IMG/VR virus record: IMGVR_UViG_2690316121_000004
Span: 1-6,447 of that record
Origin: a virus
Lineage: Duplodnaviria > Heunggongvirae > Uroviricota > Caudoviricetes
Reading direction: 5' to 3' (one strand)
Length of the DNA: 6,447 nt
Part shown: positions 1 to 6,447 of the stretch, piece after piece
Numbering within the stretch: the first letter of the stretch is position 1
Layout of the letters: each line of letters begins with the position of its first letter
Translations under genes and position numbers: made by a program
Notes under the pieces: model-generated
What the model was told of the DNA's origin: nothing
The model's input: the letters and a program-made list of their open reading frames with translations, nothing else
The model's database searches: none

Positions 1-55
1 TACATAACGAAAAACGCCTCGAGTGAAGCGTAATTGGTATGCGGTAACGCCGCGC

Positions 56-424
56 TCAGGCGGCCTTGATAGTCATATCATCTGAATCAAATATTCCTGA
101 TGTATCGATATCGGTAATTCTTATTCCTTCACTACCATCCATTGGAGGCCATCCTTCCTGACCATTTCCATCATTCCAGTCGAACTCACACACAACACCA
201 TATGCATTTAAGTCGCTTGAAATTGCTATAAGCAGAGCATGTTGCGCCAGCATGATTAATACAGCATTTAATACAGAGCCGTGTTTATTGAGTCGGTATT
301 CAGAGTCTGACCAGAAATTATTAATCTGGTGAAGTTTTTCCTCTGTCATTACGTCATGGTCAATTTCAATTTCTATTGATGCTTTCCAGTCGTAATCAAT
401 GATGTATTTTTTGATGTTTGACAT
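56..424 (-). CDS. ea10: Ea10-like early protein (122 aa), in the position and of the length of lambda ea10
   Basis: Intact 369-nt ORF including stop. Lies downstream of ral on the leftward (pL) transcript, as ea10 does in lambda, and has the same length. Sequence identity to lambda Ea10 is not verified from memory; the call rests on synteny and length. Confidence 0.6.
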   Translation of the reverse strand: MSNIKKYIIDYDWKASIEIEIDHDVMTEEKLHQINNFWSDSEYRLNKHGSVLNAVLIMLAQHALLIAISSDLNAYGVVCEFDWNDGNGQEGWPPMDGSEGIRITDIDTSGIFDSDDMTIKAA

Positions 425-584
425 CTATTCATATCCTCATAGATAAAAATCGCCCTCACATTAGAGGGCAAAGAAGATTTCCAATAATCAGAACAAGTCG
501 GCTCCTGTTTAGTTACGAGCGACATTGCTCCGTGTATTCACTCGTTGGAATGAATACACAGTGCAGTGTTTATTCTGTTGTTTA

Positions 585-614
585 TGCCAAAAATAAAGGC
601 CGACTATGCGGCCT
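585..614 (-). terminator. Rho-independent terminator downstream of the 149-aa gene
   Basis: On the minus strand, a stem AGGCCG / CGGCCT (597..602 and 609..614) with a 6-nt loop is followed by TTTATTTTT. It begins 5 nt after the stop codon at 619..621. Confidence 0.6.
586..601. repeat. 16-bp direct repeat GCCAAAAATAAAGGCC, copy 1 (flanks the inserted gene)
   Basis: Exact 16-bp match to 1107..1122, read directly from the sequence. Confidence 0.9.
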
Positions 615-618
615 GAAA

Positions 619-1068
619 TTACTTAACCAATGATGCTGCATATTCGATAAGGTAAAGCTTTGGGGCCAGCCAAATTTTTAACCAAGTCATATTGGTTACT
701 ACAGCAATAATAAAACTTACCCACAGAACAAAAACTGCTGCTAATGGTAAGATTAGAAAACTAATCTCACCGTTACTTTCCCAAATCATAGTCGGTTTGT
801 ATTTAGGCTTTCCCTTCTCCCATGCCCATCCTTCATCATCGAACTTACCAATTTCAACTTTTTGGTACTGTTTCTTCATAAACCAGAAAACCAACGGGAT
901 TGTTAAAATGGCTATTAATGTTTTAATCAGACTGTCAACCATATTCCATAGCAGCAACTGATGAACAACATCAGGAATCTGTGCCTGGCTAAATGAGACA
1001 GCCGCGTCTATTCCATTACTGGCTTTTTGCAATAGTTCTACGAGAATCTTGTTTGCTTGTTCTTCCAT
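619..1068 (-). CDS. Hypothetical 149-aa membrane protein with two predicted transmembrane helices; accessory (moron) gene inserted between ea10 and ral
   Basis: Intact ORF with ATG at 1068 preceded by AAGGTGA. Two long hydrophobic segments (LIKTLIAILTIPLVFWFM and ISFLILPLAAVFVLWVSFIIAVV). Has its own terminator and is flanked by 16-bp direct repeats. Looks AT-rich by eye. No homolog recognised. Confidence 0.7.
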   Translation of the reverse strand: MEEQANKILVELLQKASNGIDAAVSFSQAQIPDVVHQLLLWNMVDSLIKTLIAILTIPLVFWFMKKQYQKVEIGKFDDEGWAWEKGKPKYKPTMIWESNGEISFLILPLAAVFVLWVSFIIAVVTNMTWLKIWLAPKLYLIEYAASLVK

Positions 1069-1106
1069 ATATCACCTTGATTGTAATAAGCATGAAATTA
1101 TTTACG

Positions 1107-1122
1107 GCCAAAAATAAAGGCC
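1107..1122. repeat. 16-bp direct repeat GCCAAAAATAAAGGCC, copy 2
   Basis: Exact match to 586..601. Lies between the ral stop and the start of the 149-aa gene. Confidence 0.9.
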
Positions 1123-1126
1123 ACCA

Positions 1127-1224
1127 TCAGGCAGCCTTGTTGTTCTGTTTACCAAATTCTCTGGCAATCATTGCCGTCGTTCGTATTGCCCACACCATTG
1201 ATTTTTATCAATGGTCGTAGTCAT
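1127..1224 (-). pseudogene. ral: ral (restriction alleviation) remnant with an internal out-of-frame deletion
   Basis: From the ATG at 1224 the minus strand reads MTTTIDKNQWCGQ, matching the lambda Ral N-terminus, then YERRQ and a stop at 1168..1170. A different frame reads WAIRTTAMIAREFGKQNNKAA with a stop at 1127..1129, matching the lambda Ral C-terminus. The roughly 30 central codons are missing. The junction sits at GTGGGCAAT (1185..1193). Confidence 0.6.
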
Positions 1225-1294
1225 ACGGATAGTCCTGGTATTGTTCCATCACATCCTGAGGATGCTCTTCGAACTCTTCAAATTCTTCTTCCAT
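1208..1294 (-). CDS. 28-aa hyperacidic peptide (MEEEFEEFEEHPQDVMEQYQDYPYDYDH), positional equivalent of lambda orf28
   Basis: ATG at 1294 preceded by GAGGTGAGAT. It overlaps the ral start by 17 nt, the same arrangement as orf28/ral in lambda. It is too short to appear in the supplied ORF track. Confidence 0.5.
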   Translation of the reverse strand: MEEEFEEFEEHPQDVMEQYQDYPYDYDH

Positions 1295-1352
1295 ATCTCA
1301 CCTCAAATAAGTGGTTTGCTGCCTAATTTCATTTTCTGGCGATCAACACAAG

Positions 1353-1736
1353 TCATCTTGCTGTCAGTTGTTTGGATTTCCGGTAGCCTGCCGCGTAAAG
1401 AGCTACATTTGGAAGACATACACCAGTTTCTGGTTGCTTATGTCCAAACTCATTCGCGTACACAATGGCCGCTCGCTCCAGATTGCGTCTGTATTCTTCC
1501 TGCTGCCAGATCACGTCCTGTGCCATGAACTTAATTGGCTTAGCGTCTTCTATGCGCTTAGGCGTTTCGTGAGTACCTTTAGCCTGAATCTGCGCTCTGC
1601 TTAGAGTAGGGCGGCGTAATACTTCTGAACTTATTGCTTCTTCGCAGGCCAGTACGCCGTTAGCTAATGCCTTTGCCTTTAAACGCTCACGACGACGAGA
1701 ACGTGAATTGCCTTTGAACTGAGTTCTGCGTGTCAT
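1353..1736 (-). CDS. N: N-family transcription antiterminator of the P22 gene 24 type (127 aa)
   Basis: Start ATG at 1736 with AGGAGG 6 nt upstream. Arginine-rich motif near the N-terminus (FKGNSRSRRRERLKAKA). C-terminus LPNVALYAAGYRKSKQLTAR closely resembles the P22 gp24 C-terminus. First gene downstream of pL and nutL. Confidence 0.8.
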   Translation of the reverse strand: MTRRTQFKGNSRSRRRERLKAKALANGVLACEEAISSEVLRRPTLSRAQIQAKGTHETPKRIEDAKPIKFMAQDVIWQQEEYRRNLERAAIVYANEFGHKQPETGVCLPNVALYAAGYRKSKQLTAR

Positions 1737-1865
1737 GTGGAACCTCCTGATGAACTTTGGCGGTGAATACAGCCGGGCGACTAACTCCGGTCGCGTAATC
1801 ATTGCAAAGCGCCTCCGCCGAGAAGGTTAGCTTCTGCATTCACCCCAAAGTTCACTTTGGTTATT

Positions 1866-1880
1866 GCGCTTTGTCAGCGC
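1866..1880 (-). promoter_or_regulatory. nutL boxB RNA hairpin (P22 type)
   Basis: The transcribed (minus) strand reads GCGCTGACAAAGCGC: a 4-bp GC stem with loop TGACAAA, identical to the P22 boxB-left as I recall it. It lies in the pL leader upstream of N. No convincing boxA was found. Confidence 0.7.
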
Positions 1881-1948
1881 CGTAGATTCATATTCGAATC
1901 GTTGTATATTCACCGCCCTGGTGAGTAGTGCGTCCTGCTGATGTGTTT

Positions 1949-1977
1949 AGTATCACCGCTAGTGGTATTTGTGTCAA
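1949..1977 (-). promoter_or_regulatory. pL promoter (-35 TTGACA at 1972..1977, -10 GATACT at 1949..1954, minus strand)
   Basis: Canonical lambda pL hexamers with 17-bp spacing, overlapping OL1 and OL2. Confidence 0.8.
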
Positions 1978-2011
1978 CACCGCTAGAGATAATTCATCAC
2001 CGCAGATGGTT
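1951..2011. promoter_or_regulatory. OL operators: OL1 1951..1967, OL2 1975..1991, OL3 1995..2011
   Basis: Three 17-bp lambda-type repressor sites: TATCACCGCTAGTGGTA, CAACACCGCTAGAGATA, CATCACCGCAGATGGTT. Confidence 0.85.
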
Positions 2012-2157
2012 ATCTGTATGTTTTTTATATGAATTTATTTTTTGAATTGGGGTATTGCTTTGGAGGGCGAGAGATCTGAATTGCGATGTTTAGTGAGTTG
2101 TATCTATTTATTTTTCAATAAATACAATTGGTTATGTGTTTTGGGGGCGATCGTGAG

Positions 2158-2185
2158 GCAAAGAAAACCCGGCGCTGAGGCCGGG
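2158..2185 (-). terminator. Rho-independent terminator ending the cI-operon transcript (lambda timm equivalent)
   Basis: On the minus strand, stem CCCGGC / GCCGGG with a 6-nt loop is followed by TTTTCTTTG. It starts 7 nt after the stop of the 332-aa ORF. Confidence 0.7.
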
Positions 2186-2192
2186 ATGAGGA

Positions 2193-3191
2193 TTATGTTA
2201 TCTCTTTGACATAAAGTATTATCGCGGACTTTATTTCACCATCTAGTTCTTTTGCGTTGATTGACAAATGAACTGGTTTTCTATCCCACTCAGCTTGCTG
2301 AAGAGCTTTTTTATGCTCGGATGCGTCGAGAAAAACATCTTGTACTATGCACGATATTCTTAGATCGGAGTCAACATTTCTCACTTGCACTTTGAAGCTC
2401 TCTGGATCAGTGGAGTCAACCTTTTCAATGCGATAATTTCCATCAAGGCGGATCTCCATTGATTTCCGCCTTGCATTTGTAGTGAGGGTTTTGGATAGAT
2501 CTGCATCCAATACAACGCCATCAATCTGAGCTGTATCAGCCTTGACAAATGATTTAACTATGTCGGTTTTTGCGTCATGAGCAAGTCTTTCCATGTTGTC
2601 TAGCTTGGGTTTTTCGCTAATAATCTGAGTCAATAATTCACTTCGTTTTGTTTCCTGCTCAGACATGAAGCGCATGGTCGCAAGGTGTTCACGCTCAGAC
2701 TCGCTTTTTACTTCTGCCATGCGAATCTCTTTGCGGTCTTCTAGATATTTTTTGAATAGGACGACGCCGCCCCATATAAGAGCGACCCCTAAAACTGTAA
2801 TAACGATCTCTTGAGGGCCCACTTTACTCACCGCAGTTTGTATAACCTCACCCATGAACCCATCCATATTAACTTCTATCAAGGACGAGCCATTCTCAAC
2901 ATTCACCTGAATTTCGATAGCTTCCTTCTCTTCTTTTGAAAGCTTTCTTGGGTCAGGAACTCCGTACTTTAACAATGCATAAGCTCGGTTTATTTGGGCC
3001 TGCATTTCAACAAAACCCTTCATCACAGAAGGAGTCAAACTGCCATGAAATTTGTCACCAGTAAGACGGAAGGTTAAGTTAGGCCACCCTTCAAATGATA
3101 TTCCATCAGGAAGATCTTGCCCAGCGATGTACATCTCAACAAAACGCAAAGCATCTTCTTCGGAATGAATAACCGCCGTGCTGATTTCCAA
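2193..3191 (-). CDS. Hypothetical 332-aa single-pass membrane protein in the rexA-rexB slot; candidate phage exclusion / abortive-infection determinant
   Basis: Intact ORF directly downstream of cI on the same strand. The first in-frame start is TTG at 3191 with GAGG 7 nt upstream; the first ATG is at 3134 (residue 20) and has no Shine-Dalgarno. One strongly hydrophobic segment (IVITVLGVALIWGGVVLF, about residues 130-147) is followed by KKYLEDRKEIR and a long charged region. Not similar to RexA or RexB as I recall them. Confidence 0.8.
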   Translation of the reverse strand: MEISTAVIHSEEDALRFVEMYIAGQDLPDGISFEGWPNLTFRLTGDKFHGSLTPSVMKGFVEMQAQINRAYALLKYGVPDPRKLSKEEKEAIEIQVNVENGSSLIEVNMDGFMGEVIQTAVSKVGPQEIVITVLGVALIWGGVVLFKKYLEDRKEIRMAEVKSESEREHLATMRFMSEQETKRSELLTQIISEKPKLDNMERLAHDAKTDIVKSFVKADTAQIDGVVLDADLSKTLTTNARRKSMEIRLDGNYRIEKVDSTDPESFKVQVRNVDSDLRISCIVQDVFLDASEHKKALQQAEWDRKPVHLSINAKELDGEIKSAIILYVKEIT

Positions 3192-3261
3192 GACTAAACC
3201 TCTATAATTATTAATAATTTCAAATGATTGCTGTTTTTATTAGGAGACATTTAGCCCTTCA

Positions 3262-3978
<717 letters not shown>

Positions 3979-3981
3979 TTA

Positions 3982-4010
3982 AATCTATCACCGCAAGGGA
4001 TAAACATCTA
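3982..4010 (-). promoter_or_regulatory. pRM promoter (-10 TAGATT at 3982..3987, -35 TAGATG at 4005..4010, minus strand)
   Basis: Lambda pRM architecture overlapping OR3 and OR2. The -35 reads TAGATG where lambda has TAGATA. Confidence 0.75.
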
Positions 4011-4049
4011 ACACCGTGCGTGTTGACTATTTTACCTCTAGCGGTGATA
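3986..4049. promoter_or_regulatory. OR operators: OR3 3986..4002, OR2 4009..4025, OR1 4033..4049
   Basis: TATCACCGCAAGGGATA, TAACACCGTGCGTGTTG, TACCTCTAGCGGTGATA. Lambda-type tripartite operator between divergent cI and cro. Confidence 0.9.
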
Positions 4050-4051
4050 AT
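4022..4051 (+). promoter_or_regulatory. pR promoter (-35 TTGACT at 4022..4027, -10 GATAAT at 4046..4051)
   Basis: Canonical lambda pR hexamers with 18-bp spacing. The cro Shine-Dalgarno (TAAGGAGG) and ATG follow. Confidence 0.85.
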
Positions 4052-4075
4052 GATTACCTGTACTAAGGAGGTTGT

Positions 4076-4276
4076 ATGGAACAACGCATAACCCTGAAAG
4101 ATTATGCAATACGCTTTGGGCAAACCAAGACGGCTAAAGATCTCGGTGTATATCAAAGCGCGATTAACAAGGCCATTCATGCAGGCCGAAAGATTTTTTT
4201 AACTATAAACGCTGATGGAAGCGTTTATGCGGAAGAAATAAAGCCCTTCCCAAGTAACAAAAAAACAACTGCATAA
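4076..4276 (+). CDS. cro: Cro repressor, lambda type (66 aa)
   Basis: Matches lambda Cro over all 66 residues except about 2 conservative changes (M12I, V55I from memory). Strong Shine-Dalgarno upstream. Confidence 0.95.
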
Positions 4277-4314
4277 GTAACACCGCTATTTTCACAATGG
4301 ACATTCGTCCTACG

Positions 4315-4329
4315 TCGCTGACAAAGCGA
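4315..4329 (+). promoter_or_regulatory. nutR boxB hairpin (TCGCTGACAAAGCGA), with a possible boxA-like CGCTATTTT at 4284..4292
   Basis: 4-bp stem with loop TGACAAA, the same loop as nutL boxB, located just downstream of cro. The boxA call is weak: one or two mismatches to CGCTCTTTA and a longer spacer than in lambda. Confidence 0.6.
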
Positions 4330-4403
4330 GTCCCAATATATCTGACCAACTAAGGCCATATGCGTTTCCACGCATACCTTTCAACTAACTATTCACTATT
4401 GGA

Positions 4404-4437
4404 AATCTTAAGAAATGGAACAAACAAATTACAGCAA
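4404..4437 (-). promoter_or_regulatory. pRE-like CII-dependent promoter (TTGC-N6-TTGT site at 4424..4437, -10 AAGATT at 4404..4409, minus strand)
   Basis: On the minus strand: TTGCTGTAATTTGT, then 14 nt, then AAGATT. This mirrors lambda pRE (TTGC-N6-TTGC, 13 nt, AAGTAT) and overlaps the cII start codon as in lambda. Confidence 0.5.
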
Positions 4438-4711
4438 ACTATCACAGCGCGACGTTGATCGCGCAGAAACAGATTTACTTATCAACCTGTCAACGCTTAC
4501 TCAGCGCGGTCTGGCAAAGATGATTGGCTGTCATGAATCGAAGATAAGCAGAACAGACTGGAGGTTTATAGCTTCGGTCTTGTGTGCTTTTGGCATGGCA
4601 TCAGACATCAGTCCGATTAGCAGAGCTTTTAAGTATGCGCTTGATGAAATCACCAATAAAAAACGCCCGGCGGCAACCGAGCGTTCTGAACAAATCCAGA
4701 TGGAATTCTGA
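4415..4711 (+). CDS. cII: CII transcriptional activator, chimeric (98 aa)
   Basis: The C-terminal 19 residues (TNKKRPAATERSEQIQMEF) are identical to lambda CII. The N-terminal 79 residues are divergent but alignable, including the helix-turn-helix region. Confidence 0.85.
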   Translation: MEQTNYSKLSQRDVDRAETDLLINLSTLTQRGLAKMIGCHESKISRTDWRFIASVLCAFGMASDISPISRAFKYALDEITNKKRPAATERSEQIQMEF

Positions 4712-4734
4712 GGTCATTACTGGATCTATCAACA
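4655..4734 (-). ncRNA. oop: oop antisense RNA with its intrinsic terminator
   Basis: The minus strand reads GTTGATAGATCCAGTAATGACCTCAGAATTCCATCTGGATTTGTTCAGAACGCTCGGTTGCCGCCGGGCGTTTTTTATT, matching lambda oop as recalled. A promoter-like pair lies upstream on the minus strand (-10 CATAAT near 4741..4746, -35 TTGAGT near 4764..4769). Confidence 0.8.
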
Positions 4735-4743
4735 GGAGTCATT

Positions 4744-5642
4744 ATGACAAATACAGCAAAAATACTCAACTTCGGCAGAGGTAACTTTGCCGGACAGGAG
4801 CGTAATGTGGCAGATCTCGATGATGGTTACGCCAGACTATCAAATATGCTGCTTGAGGCTTATTCAGGCGCAGATCTGACCAAGCGACAGTTTAAAGTGC
4901 TGCTTGCCATTCTGCGTAAAACCTATGGGTGGAATAAACCAATGGACAGAATCACCGATTCTCAACTTAGTGAGATTACAAAGTTACCTGTCAAACGGTG
5001 CAATGAAGCCAAGTTAGAACTCGTCAGAATGAATATTATCAAGCAGCAAGGCGGCATGTTTGGACCAAATAAAAACATCTCAGAATGGTGTATCCCTCAA
5101 AACGAGGGAAAATCCCCTAAAACGAGGGATAAAACATCCCTCAAATTGGGGGATTGCTATCCCTCAAAACAGGGGGACACAAAAGACACTATTACAAAAG
5201 AAAAAAGAAAAGATTATTCGTCCGAGAATTCTGGCGAATCCTCTGACCAGCCAGAAAACGATCTTTCTGTGGTTAAACCGGATGCTGCAATTCAGAGCGG
5301 CAGCAAGTGGGGGACAGCAGAAGACCTGACCGCCGCAGAGTGGATGTTTGACATGGTGAAGACCATCCGCCATCAGCCAGAAAACCGAATTTTGCTGGGT
5401 GGGCTAACGATATCCGCCTGATGCGTGAACGTGACGGACGTAACCACCGAGACATGTGTGTACTGTTCCGCTGGGCATGCCAGGACAACTTCTGGTCCGG
5501 TAACGTGCTGAGTCCGGCCAAACTCCGCGACAAGTGGACCCAGCTCGAAATCAACCGAAACAAGCAACAGGCTGGCGTGACAGCCGGCAAACCAAAACTC
5601 GACCTGACGAACACTGACTGGATTTACGGGGTGGAGCTATGA
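4744..5642 (+). pseudogene. O: O replication initiator, frameshifted (N-terminal 225 codons in one frame, C-terminal 73 codons in another)
   Basis: The ORF 4744..5421 matches the lambda O N-terminal domain; the ORF ending at 5642 matches the lambda O C-terminus and overlaps the P start (ATGA) as in lambda. The span is 899 nt, not a multiple of 3. The frames switch at about 5364..5372 (ATCCGCCATCAGCC here; lambda has ATCGCACCATCAGCC as recalled). Confidence 0.85.
5092..5216. other. ori-lambda: four iterons (about 5092..5111, 5112..5131, 5134..5156, 5159..5178) plus an AT-rich unwinding region (5179..5216)
   Basis: Four repeats of ATCCCTCAAAACGAGGGA-like sequence, followed by CACAAAAGACACTATTACAAAAGAAAAAAGAAAAGATTATTCG, inside the O coding region. 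Confidence 0.9.
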
Positions 5643-6340
5643 AAAACATCGCCGCACAGATGGTTAACTTTGACTGTGAGCAGATGCGCCGGATCGCCAA
5701 CAACATGCCGGAACAGTACGACGAAAAGCCGCAGGTACAGCAGGTAGCGCAGATCATCAACGGTGTGTTCAGCCAGTTACTGGCAACTTTCCCGGCGAGT
5801 CTGGCTAACCGTGACCAGAACGAACTGAACGAAATCCGCCGCCAGTGGGTTCTGGCTTTCCGGGAAAACGGGATCACCACAATGGAACAGGTTAACGCAG
5901 GAATGCGCGTAGCCCGTCGGCAGAATCGACCATTTCTGCCATCACCCGGGCAGTTTGTTGCATGGTGCCGGGAAGAAGCATCCGTTATCGCCGGACTGCC
6001 AAACGTCAGCGAGCTGGTTGATATGGTTTACGAGTATTGCCGGAAGCGTGGTCTGTATCCAGATGCAGAGTCTTATCCGTGGAAATCAAACGCGCACTAC
6101 TGGCTGGTTACCAACCTGTATCAGAACATGCGGGCCAATGCGCTTACTGATGCGGAATTACGCCGTAAGGCCGCAGATGAGCTTGTCCATATGACTGCGA
6201 GAATTAACCGTGGTGAGGCGATCCCTGAACCAGTAAAACAACTTCCTGTCATGGGCGGTAGACCTCTAAATCGTGCACAGGCTCTGGCGAAGATCGCAGA
6301 AATCAAAGCTAAGTTCGGACTGAAAGGAGCAAGTGTATGA
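5639..6340 (+). CDS. P: P replication protein (DnaB helicase loader), lambda type (233 aa)
   Basis: Full-length, near-identical to lambda P. The start overlaps the O stop. Confidence 0.95.
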   Translation: MKNIAAQMVNFDCEQMRRIANNMPEQYDEKPQVQQVAQIINGVFSQLLATFPASLANRDQNELNEIRRQWVLAFRENGITTMEQVNAGMRVARRQNRPFLPSPGQFVAWCREEASVIAGLPNVSELVDMVYEYCRKRGLYPDAESYPWKSNAHYWLVTNLYQNMRANALTDAELRRKAADELVHMTARINRGEAIPEPVKQLPVMGGRPLNRAQALAKIAEIKAKFGLKGASV

Positions 6341-6447
6341 CGGGCAAAGAGGCAATTATTCATTACCTGGGGACGCATAATAGCTTCTGTGCGCCGGACG
6401 TTGCCGCGTTAACAGGCGCAACAGTAACCAGCATAAATCAGGCCGCG
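6338..6447 (+). CDS. ren: ren (Rex-exclusion resistance), 5' end only; runs off the window
   Basis: Translation MTGKEAIIHYLGTHNSFCAPDVAALTGATVTSINQAA matches the lambda Ren N-terminus. The ATG overlaps the P stop. Confidence 0.85.

Follow-up and report, generated by a model that had tools for sequence, protein, structure and literature searches.

The region studied here raises the question to which of the known antitermination systems the N gene and the nut sites on either side of a lambda-type immunity cassette belong, and whether the protein and its RNA targets have been exchanged together. The stretch of DNA analysed (6,447 nucleotides; positions 1 to 6,447 of the IMG/VR virus record IMGVR_UViG_2690316121_000004, in the following called the window) represents the early regulatory part of a phage or prophage of the lambda family. 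An earlier note on this DNA had described a P22-type N antiterminator with matching boxB hairpins embedded around the cassette. According to our analysis, an immunity cassette of lambda specificity is flanked on both sides by an N/nut antitermination module of the H-19B/933W/HK97 class. We assign this reading a probability of about 0.93.

The left part of the window is encoded on the minus strand and starts with the lambda-like gene ea10 (DUF2528; 56-424), followed by a non-lambda membrane ORF of 149 amino acids (619-1068) and the lambda-like orf28 (1208-1294). The latter adjoins a remnant of ral, in which an internal deletion of 103 bp was found. Upstream of these genes, still on the minus strand, lie the N antiterminator gene (1353-1736; 127 amino acids), an ORF of 332 amino acids in the slot of lambda rexAB (2193-3191), and cI (3262-3975; 237 amino acids). 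The plus strand carries the lambda-type OR/pR region (3986-4051), cro (4076-4276; 66 amino acids), nutR from boxA to boxB (4284-4329), a chimeric cII (4415-4711) with an H-19B/933W-type start and a lambda-type end, O (4744-5642), P (5639-6340), and the start of ren (6337-6447), inside which the window ends. O is frameshifted by a 1-nt deletion near position 5367; as a single-base event, it may be of recent date or due to an error in sequencing. A PADLOC search with the two neighbouring ORFs that are not of lambda type gave no match. The gene sieB is absent: in lambda, the interval between orf28 and N is occupied by the 555-nt sieB, whereas in the window only 58 nt separate the N stop (1353) from the orf28 start (1294), so that the sieB-sized gap is indeed missing, as had been noted before.

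cI, Cro and the operators of the cassette resemble those of lambda. cI (Pfam HTH_3 and Peptidase_S24) is identical to lambda cI at 231 of 237 positions (97.5% at the amino acid level) and 98.3% identical to the cI proteins of HK97 and mEp234, while Cro (Pfam Cro, E 8e-34) shares 64 of 66 residues with lambda Cro (97.0%). On the plus strand, OR3 (3986-4002) and OR2 (4009-4025) match lambda exactly and OR1 (4033-4049) has one mismatch; on the minus strand, OL1 (1951-1967), OL2 (1975-1991) and OL3 (1995-2011) have one mismatch each. A promoter scan located both early promoters, each with the lambda hexamers: pR on the plus strand (-35 at 4023-4028, -10 at 4046-4051) and pL on the minus strand (-35 at 1972-1977, -10 at 1949-1954; TTGACA/GATACT, 10 of 12 positions). 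Judged by these similarities, the window carries an immunity region of lambda specificity, and the lambda-type nature of cI, cro, OL and OR claimed in the earlier note was borne out.

The N ORF is intact and lies directly downstream of pL and nutL. Its product matched the Pfam family PF25694 ('Transcriptional antitermination N peptide') with 57.3 bits (E 2.4e-15; cutoff 27.9), the match covering positions 6-100 of the 100 in the profile. A second match, with an E value of 8e-38, was to phrog_271 ('anti-termination protein N-like'). No match at E≤0.01 was obtained to PF11438 (N36), the lambda N family. The start codon at 1736 is preceded by the Shine-Dalgarno sequence AGGAGG (1743-1748, minus strand). 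A further in-frame ATG at 1802, which would lead to a protein of 149 amino acids, was considered and rejected, since it is the ATG at 1736 that has AGGAGG in front of it, and since H-19B, HK97 and mEp234 are all annotated with the 127-residue form; the ATG at 1802 is therefore probably not the start of N.

N is identical to H-19B N at 124 of 127 positions (97.6% at the amino acid level), and none of the three changes R31C, H41R and D60K falls into the arginine-rich motif (ARM) or the C-terminal domain. The identity to the N proteins of BP-4795, ST2-8624, HK97 and 933W is 96-98% (HK97: 96.1%). The ARM covers residues 9 to 27 (GNSRSRRRERLKAKALANG) with the core 12-RSRRRER-18, and the C-terminal region that, by analogy with H-19B N, would bind RNA polymerase (RNAP) terminates in ...CLPNVALYAAGYRKSKQLTAR. 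Tryptophan is absent from the ARM region; in the alignment, N26 takes the position equivalent to W18, a residue with a known role in lambda N. A phmmer sequence search of N against the PDB returned nothing relevant, the sole match being a citrate lyase with an E value of 0.67; the N-peptide entries of the PDB are too short or too divergent to be detected by phmmer.

Both nut sites could be located on the transcribed strand of their operons, nutL in the pL transcript and nutR in the pR transcript. The nutL boxB GCGCUGACAAAGCGC (1866-1880, minus strand), between pL and N, folds as GCGCU-GACAA-AGCGC with -7.1 kcal/mol (z -3.2), and the nutR boxB UCGCUGACAAAGCGA (4315-4329, plus strand), between cro and cII, folds as UCGCU-GACAA-AGCGA with -5.6 kcal/mol (z -3.8). 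For both, a 5-bp stem with a U-A closing pair and the pentaloop GACAA is predicted. Thus, the two hairpins stand where they had been placed before, while the loop, previously given as GACAAA, is the pentaloop GACAA. Of a 13-mer common to both sites, CGCTGACAAAGCG, the window contains exactly two copies, compared to 0.01 expected occurrences (200 shuffles). Between boxA and boxB, the minimum free energy (MFE) and centroid folds contain an additional spacer hairpin at each site: GAUUC-GAAUAU-GAAUC in nutL (1885-1900, minus strand) and GGAC-AUUC-GUCC in nutR (4299-4310, plus strand). The stem of the former is conserved and its loop variable in mEp234, Oslo and BIS08P22, while the latter is unchanged in H-19B, HK97, mEp234, ev017, 2B8, Oslo and BIS08P22.

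In H-19B, ST2-8624, mEp234 and HK97, GACAA hairpins occupy both conserved nut positions, and in P22 the nutL position. The nutL boxB of the window is identical to those of H-19B, HK97, mEp234 and P22 nutL, and the nutR boxB is identical to those of H-19B, HK97 and mEp234; the mEp234 record EF120460 annotates both boxBs at the homologous positions. The nutR boxA CGCUAUUUU (4284-4292, plus strand), positioned as annotated in mEp234 and identical to that of H-19B, agrees at 7 of 9 positions with the P22 boxA CGCUCUUUA, which we take to be the general boxA consensus. For nutL, the putative boxA CGCACUACU (1924-1932, minus strand) was transferred from the mEp234 annotation, where it is also called 'putative', and matches the consensus weakly. 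The H-19B boxA is reportedly dispensable. An Rfam scan of the window (E≤1) gave no nut or boxB match, only three sub-threshold chance matches.

Do the ARM of N and the boxB loops change together? N, nutL and nutR were compared in 15 phages, a small hand-picked sample, and the ARM class followed the boxB loops of both sites, as would be expected if antiterminator and nut sites co-vary as a unit, which the earlier note had proposed. Phages with the lambda ARM (lambda, ev099, mEp332) have the loops GAAGA in nutL and GAAAA in nutR. The H-19B ARM, found in H-19B, ST2-8624, mEp234, HK97, the window and, with 87%, in Oslo, goes with GACAA at both sites, the nutL loop of Oslo being the variant GUCAA; the P22 ARM of P22 likewise goes with GACAA and GACAA. 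A VT2-Sakai-type ARM is present in ev017, 2B8 and BIS08P22 together with a GAAA tetraloop at both nut sites. These phages keep the H-19B-type spacer hairpin in an otherwise homologous nut context, and outside the ARM class the N protein of BIS08P22 is 72% H-19B-like. HK620 and HK140 combine an HK620-type ARM with a hairpin of their own that is the same at nutL and nutR, and phage 21 has its own ARM and its own hairpins. Also among the lambda-immunity phages alone, there are two N classes, and in each of them nutL and nutR carry boxBs that fit the class. Pairing was scored for the four outer positions of the boxB stem, as MAFFT had placed the gap of the tetraloop within the closing pair. These positions are paired throughout (100%), a figure that is partly circular because the sequences were picked as hairpins, and three of the four show compensatory changes. 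The co-variation as such has already been pointed out in the literature for epsilon34 N (PMC2629481).

The relationship to H-19B is also seen at the DNA level. For the segment with N and nutL (1295-1935), the best match in the DNA search was H-19B with 98.6% identity over 100% of the length; many Stx phages, BP-4795, HK97 and 933W came next. In the nutR region (4270-4420), the identity to phages of the 933W family, H-19B, HK106 and mEp234 is 99-100%. Two segments are identical to H-19B (GenBank AF034975) in every base, one reaching from the pL transcription start (+1) to the start codon of N and the other from the stop codon of cro to the end of boxB. They include boxA (putative in nutL), spacer hairpin and boxB of both nut sites, and the 5' part of cII is of the same type as in H-19B. 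The spacer hairpins at both nut sites are a hallmark of H-19B, whereas the nut folds of lambda and P22 lack them. In contrast, cI, cro and the operators of H-19B are non-lambda, its cI being only 23.6% identical to that of the window. The module is thus best assigned to the H-19B/933W/HK97 N-nut lineage, a separate and already characterised one, and not to P22's own.

N and nut sites of the H-19B/933W type have reportedly been studied by Neely and Friedman. Detailed work on H-19B N came from the Sen laboratory. The H-19B nutR contains two hairpins, and N together with NusA protects spacer and boxB in footprinting (PMC3526286). Loss-of-function mutations were found in the ARM residues 12-RSRRRER-18, with R15C/P and R18P abolishing antitermination (PMC3526286), and the C-terminal domain contacts RNAP (PMC4499122). 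With nut sites identical to those of the window, H-19B N mediates terminator readthrough that depends on N and NusA (PMC3526286, PMC4499122). The mechanism proposed for the window is in part inferred from this near-identity to characterised systems. Upon derepression, the pL and pR transcripts would carry nutL and nutR RNA with boxA, the spacer hairpin and the GACAA pentaloop of boxB. N, translated from the pL transcript, would bind boxB via its N-terminal ARM (the core and flanking residues) and contact NusA, and its C-terminal region ending in ...CLPNVALYAAGYRKSKQLTAR would contact RNAP. Thereby, the elongation complex would become resistant to the Rho-dependent terminator tR1 and to further downstream terminators, and the delayed-early genes would be switched on. 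Owing to the decay seen in O and ral, this copy of the module may have ceased to serve a productive lytic cycle.

For placing the borders of the module, the window was compared to lambda and to H-19B by pairwise BLAST. Homology to lambda covers 1-607, 1098-1319, 1910-2185, 3261-4287 and 4650-6447, and homology to H-19B covers 1292-1943 and 4269-5129; the lambda block around orf28 is also given as 1169-1319. The inner left junction is the overlap of both (1910-1943, minus strand), where the pL transcript begins; it holds the sequence ATCAGCAGGACGCACT (1927-1942), common to all three phages, and the putative nutL boxA. The inner right junction (4269-4287, plus strand) consists of the cro stop and the first boxA bases, which are common to lambda and H-19B. 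At the outer left junction (1292-1319, minus strand), the lambda-like orf28 meets H-19B-like sequence downstream of N. On the right side, the non-lambda block continues past nutR through tR1 and into cII, whose first approximately 78 codons are of the H-19B/933W type and whose last approximately 18 codons are of the lambda type, with the junction near 4650; in total, this cII is 86.7% identical to H-19B cII and 40.8% identical to lambda cII at the amino acid level. The junctions between pL and nutL and between cro and nutR that had been noted before are present, but the block on the right extends further, to approximately 4650. The module appears to have been joined to the lambda immunity region by recombination within two short stretches of conserved sequence, one at pL +1 and one at the cro stop/boxA.

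The same data bear on other readings of the locus. One is a direct acquisition of the module from P22 or a P22-like Salmonella phage, with N as a true orthologue of gp24, so that 'P22-type' would have to be taken literally. In BLASTP, N indeed aligned better with P22 gp24 (E 8e-11) than with lambda N (0.014-0.025) or phage 21 N (0.39), and P22 gp24 is also a member of PF25694 (152 bits). Neither of the two findings that would have refuted the earlier note was obtained, namely a better alignment of N with lambda N than with gp24 or GACAA hairpins away from the conserved nut positions of related phages. However, this alignment is limited to the last approximately 29 residues (100-127; 72% identity), the region to which also the matches of P22-group proteins are confined. 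Over the whole length the identity is 30% in a global alignment (38% over the columns of the multiple alignment), which speaks against a close full-length homology, and N is 27 residues longer with an unrelated centre of approximately 70 residues. The ARMs align well (GNAKTRRHERRRKLAIER in P22 gp24, GNSRSRRRERLKAKALAN in the window). In the complex of the P22 N peptide with boxB (PDB 1A4T), two residues are in contact with the loop base C8, an arginine and an isoleucine (PMC11480772). This isoleucine would be P22 I29, equivalent to L24 of the window N, and this equivalence and the missing tryptophan are consistent with a P22-style recognition of the loop. On the RNA side, P22 (NC_002371) and the window share the GACAA pentaloop and an identical nutL boxB, and both window boxBs, with a 5-bp stem and GACAA, can be assigned to the P22 boxB specificity class. 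The P22 nutR boxB, however, has another stem with a C·C closing position (CCGCC-GACAA-CGCGG), and the P22 nut spacers differ and form no spacer hairpins. Moreover, no P22 record was among the DNA matches, which were led by H-19B. The shared specificity class of ARM and boxB loop explains why the module had been seen as 'P22-type'; the protein family and the RNA-specificity class of that assignment stand, while the origin lies with H-19B/933W/HK97. We regard an origin from P22 as extremely unlikely and, on these alignments, as effectively refuted.

An H-19B-class module next to lambda immunity could also be an artefact of assembly, namely a chimera of two lambdoid prophages from one host, as E. 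coli genomes often contain several of them that share long segments (a single genome had up to 7 matching places). The same junctions are nevertheless present in HK97, mEp234, HK106 and PhiR5_2, phages that have been isolated and sequenced. Among 5426 complete E. coli genomes, searched at a query coverage of at least 80% with junction queries that pure lambda or pure H-19B sequence covers to at most 71%, the left hybrid junction was found in 111 and the right one in 118 genomes (approximately 2%), the latter including O104:H4 strains, and the window in its entirety has a 99.5% match in one complete chromosome (NZ_CP148323). The probability of a chimera is negligible, and the independently isolated phages have already refuted it. 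Another reading takes N and the hairpins as relics in a defective prophage, where the GACAA hairpins would serve, for example, only in Rho loading or as terminators or RNase substrates. The frameshift in O and the deletion in ral point in this direction. In the closest genome copy, N is furthermore annotated as a pseudogene fragment; as its N differs from that of the window by one missense change only, this call looks like an annotation artefact. Against a relic speak also the intact state of the N ORF, its Shine-Dalgarno sequence, pL, pR and both nut sites, and the identity of the nut sites to functional H-19B sequences, so that we consider it very unlikely.

Returning to the H-19B/933W/HK97-class module as the preferred reading, its significance goes little beyond correct annotation. 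The arrangement is textbook lambdoid mosaicism, in which the specificities of immunity and of antitermination form distinct modules, reshuffled at linkers that are short and conserved, and in which the arginine motif of N must travel with its two RNA targets. Labelling the module as H-19B/HK97 rather than P22 allows the transfer of experimental knowledge on ARM residues, spacer hairpins and the contacts to NusA and RNAP. Among the prophages of E. coli, also in strains of clinical serotypes, the combination of lambda immunity and H-19B-type N is common. A more far-reaching idea is that the swap of ARM and boxB specificity around an unchanged lambda immunity core has been positively selected. 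If so, the GACAA boxBs would let a lambda-immune phage evade exclusion factors aimed at lambda boxB, such as HK022 Nun, the swap might also bring the reduced NusB/S10 requirement reported for H-19B N, and the conserved blocks at pL +1 and the cro stop/boxA would be dedicated recombination linkers. This proposal is tentative, and we rather doubt it.

In comparison with known systems, lambda and phage 21 resemble the window in general architecture: N is the first gene of the pL transcript and carries an ARM, and both early transcripts contain boxA (putative in the nutL of the window), spacer and boxB. In detail they differ. The N proteins of lambda (25-27% identity) and phage 21 (24% identity) match the window N only weakly, through the ARM, and have in common a C-terminal module unlike that of the window N. 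Lambda N scores below the cutoff of PF25694 with 16.4 bits, in line with its own family, PF11438. The lambda boxBs GCCCUGAAAAAGGGC (nutR) and GCCCUGAAGAAGGGC (nutL) have the loops GAAAA and GAAGA, respectively, instead of GACAA at both sites, and the boxB hairpins of phage 21 are unrelated to those of the window.

The closest counterparts are phages in which the combination of lambda immunity with H-19B-type N and nut sites is already known. HK97 (NC_002167), with cI and Cro 99.2% and 98.5% identical to those of lambda, shares the order of the window, i.e. N, the same nutL boxB, lambda-type OL, cI and cro, the same nutR boxB, and an H-19B-type cII. It differs in the rex slot (gp48/gp49 versus the 332-aa ORF), in the N leader between nutL and N, and in the arms: those of HK97 contain erf/abc2 and replication genes of the P22 type, those of the window lambda ea10, O, P and ren. 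A paper by Degnan et al. from 2007 is said to deal with the wild lambda-immunity phages mEp234 and HK106 (EF120460, EF120461). These two have the gene order of the window and annotated boxA and boxB of both nut sites, their cI and N are 98.3% and 96% identical to those of the window, and they carry hicAB and one ORF in the rex slot. For the HK97 early region, Juhala et al. 2000 is the source as cited in PMC2629481, and PMC3442831 places mEp234 experimentally in the lambda immunity group.

The chromosome of E. coli NZ_CP148323.1 (L006), which is 99.5% identical to the window, served together with lambda as the reference for the replication gene O (4744–5642). In the window, a 1-nt deletion after position 5367 splits O into two ORFs (4744–5421 and 5421–5642; affected stretch 5340–5421), while O of NZ_CP148323.1 is intact with 900 nt. 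The deletion represents either a sequencing error or a genuine inactivating mutation, in which case the prophage is defective in replication. For the antiterminator gene N, RefSeq/PGAP annotates in NZ_CP148323.1, the genome closest to the window, only a 69-nt pseudogene fragment (L006 4353–4421) labelled as "missing N-terminus". Since the sole difference from the intact window ORF is one missense change, R41H, this pseudogene call looks like an annotation artefact.

On the minus strand, only remnants of ral are found (1098–1200). Compared to lambda, the gene carries an internal deletion of 103 bp and is therefore reduced to a frameshifted stub of 18 aa (MTTTIDKNQWCGQYERRQ, followed by a stop codon) and a C-terminal remnant, which is out of frame. 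In the matching genome, the 57-nt stub bears the PGAP label "Ral family protein". Between ea10 and ral, the lambda sequence is replaced by a minus-strand gene for a predicted membrane protein of 149 aa (619–1068), which belongs to phrog_3054 (labelled as unknown function) and had no match in Pfam or PADLOC. In Salmonella phage Oslo, the annotation also shows an ORF close to N that has the length of this gene (450 nt).

Another non-lambda ORF of 332 aa (2193–3191, minus strand) is located between cI and OL, in the slot of lambda rexAB, which is expressed in lysogens from pRM. No family was found for it in Pfam or PADLOC; it was assigned to phrog_6191 with an E-value of 1e-137, also labelled as unknown function. 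In phage mEp332, the same slot contains a distantly related protein of 345 aa (22% identity, E 6e-13). The 332-aa ORF is a candidate for an exclusion or defence gene expressed in lysogens.

The cII gene (4415–4711) is chimeric, with about 78 N-terminal codons of the H-19B/933W type and the last about 18 codons of the lambda type (TNKKRPAATERSEQIQMEF). The crossover is located at about position 4650, directly upstream of the oop terminator (4660–4687, minus strand). Compared to lambda, the operators OL1, OL2 and OR1 (1951–1991 and 4033–4049) share a central change from CTGGCGG to CTAGCGG. The same variant is present in OL1 of phage ev099 and in OL1 and OL2 of mEp332, whereas HK97 retained the lambda bases at these positions.

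The nut context of the window has homologous counterparts in Salmonella phage BIS08P22 and in phages ev017 and 2B8, in which the spacer hairpin GGACAUUCGUCC and the UCGCU/AGCGA stem are identical. However, their boxB loop is a GAAA tetraloop instead of GACAA, and the arginine-rich motif (ARM) of their N proteins (G[ST]AA[SG]RRR.RRA) is of another class than that of the window, while BIS08P22 N is H-19B-like (72%) outside the ARM. The three phages provide a naturally occurring case of a one-base change in the boxB loop coupled with a swap of the ARM.
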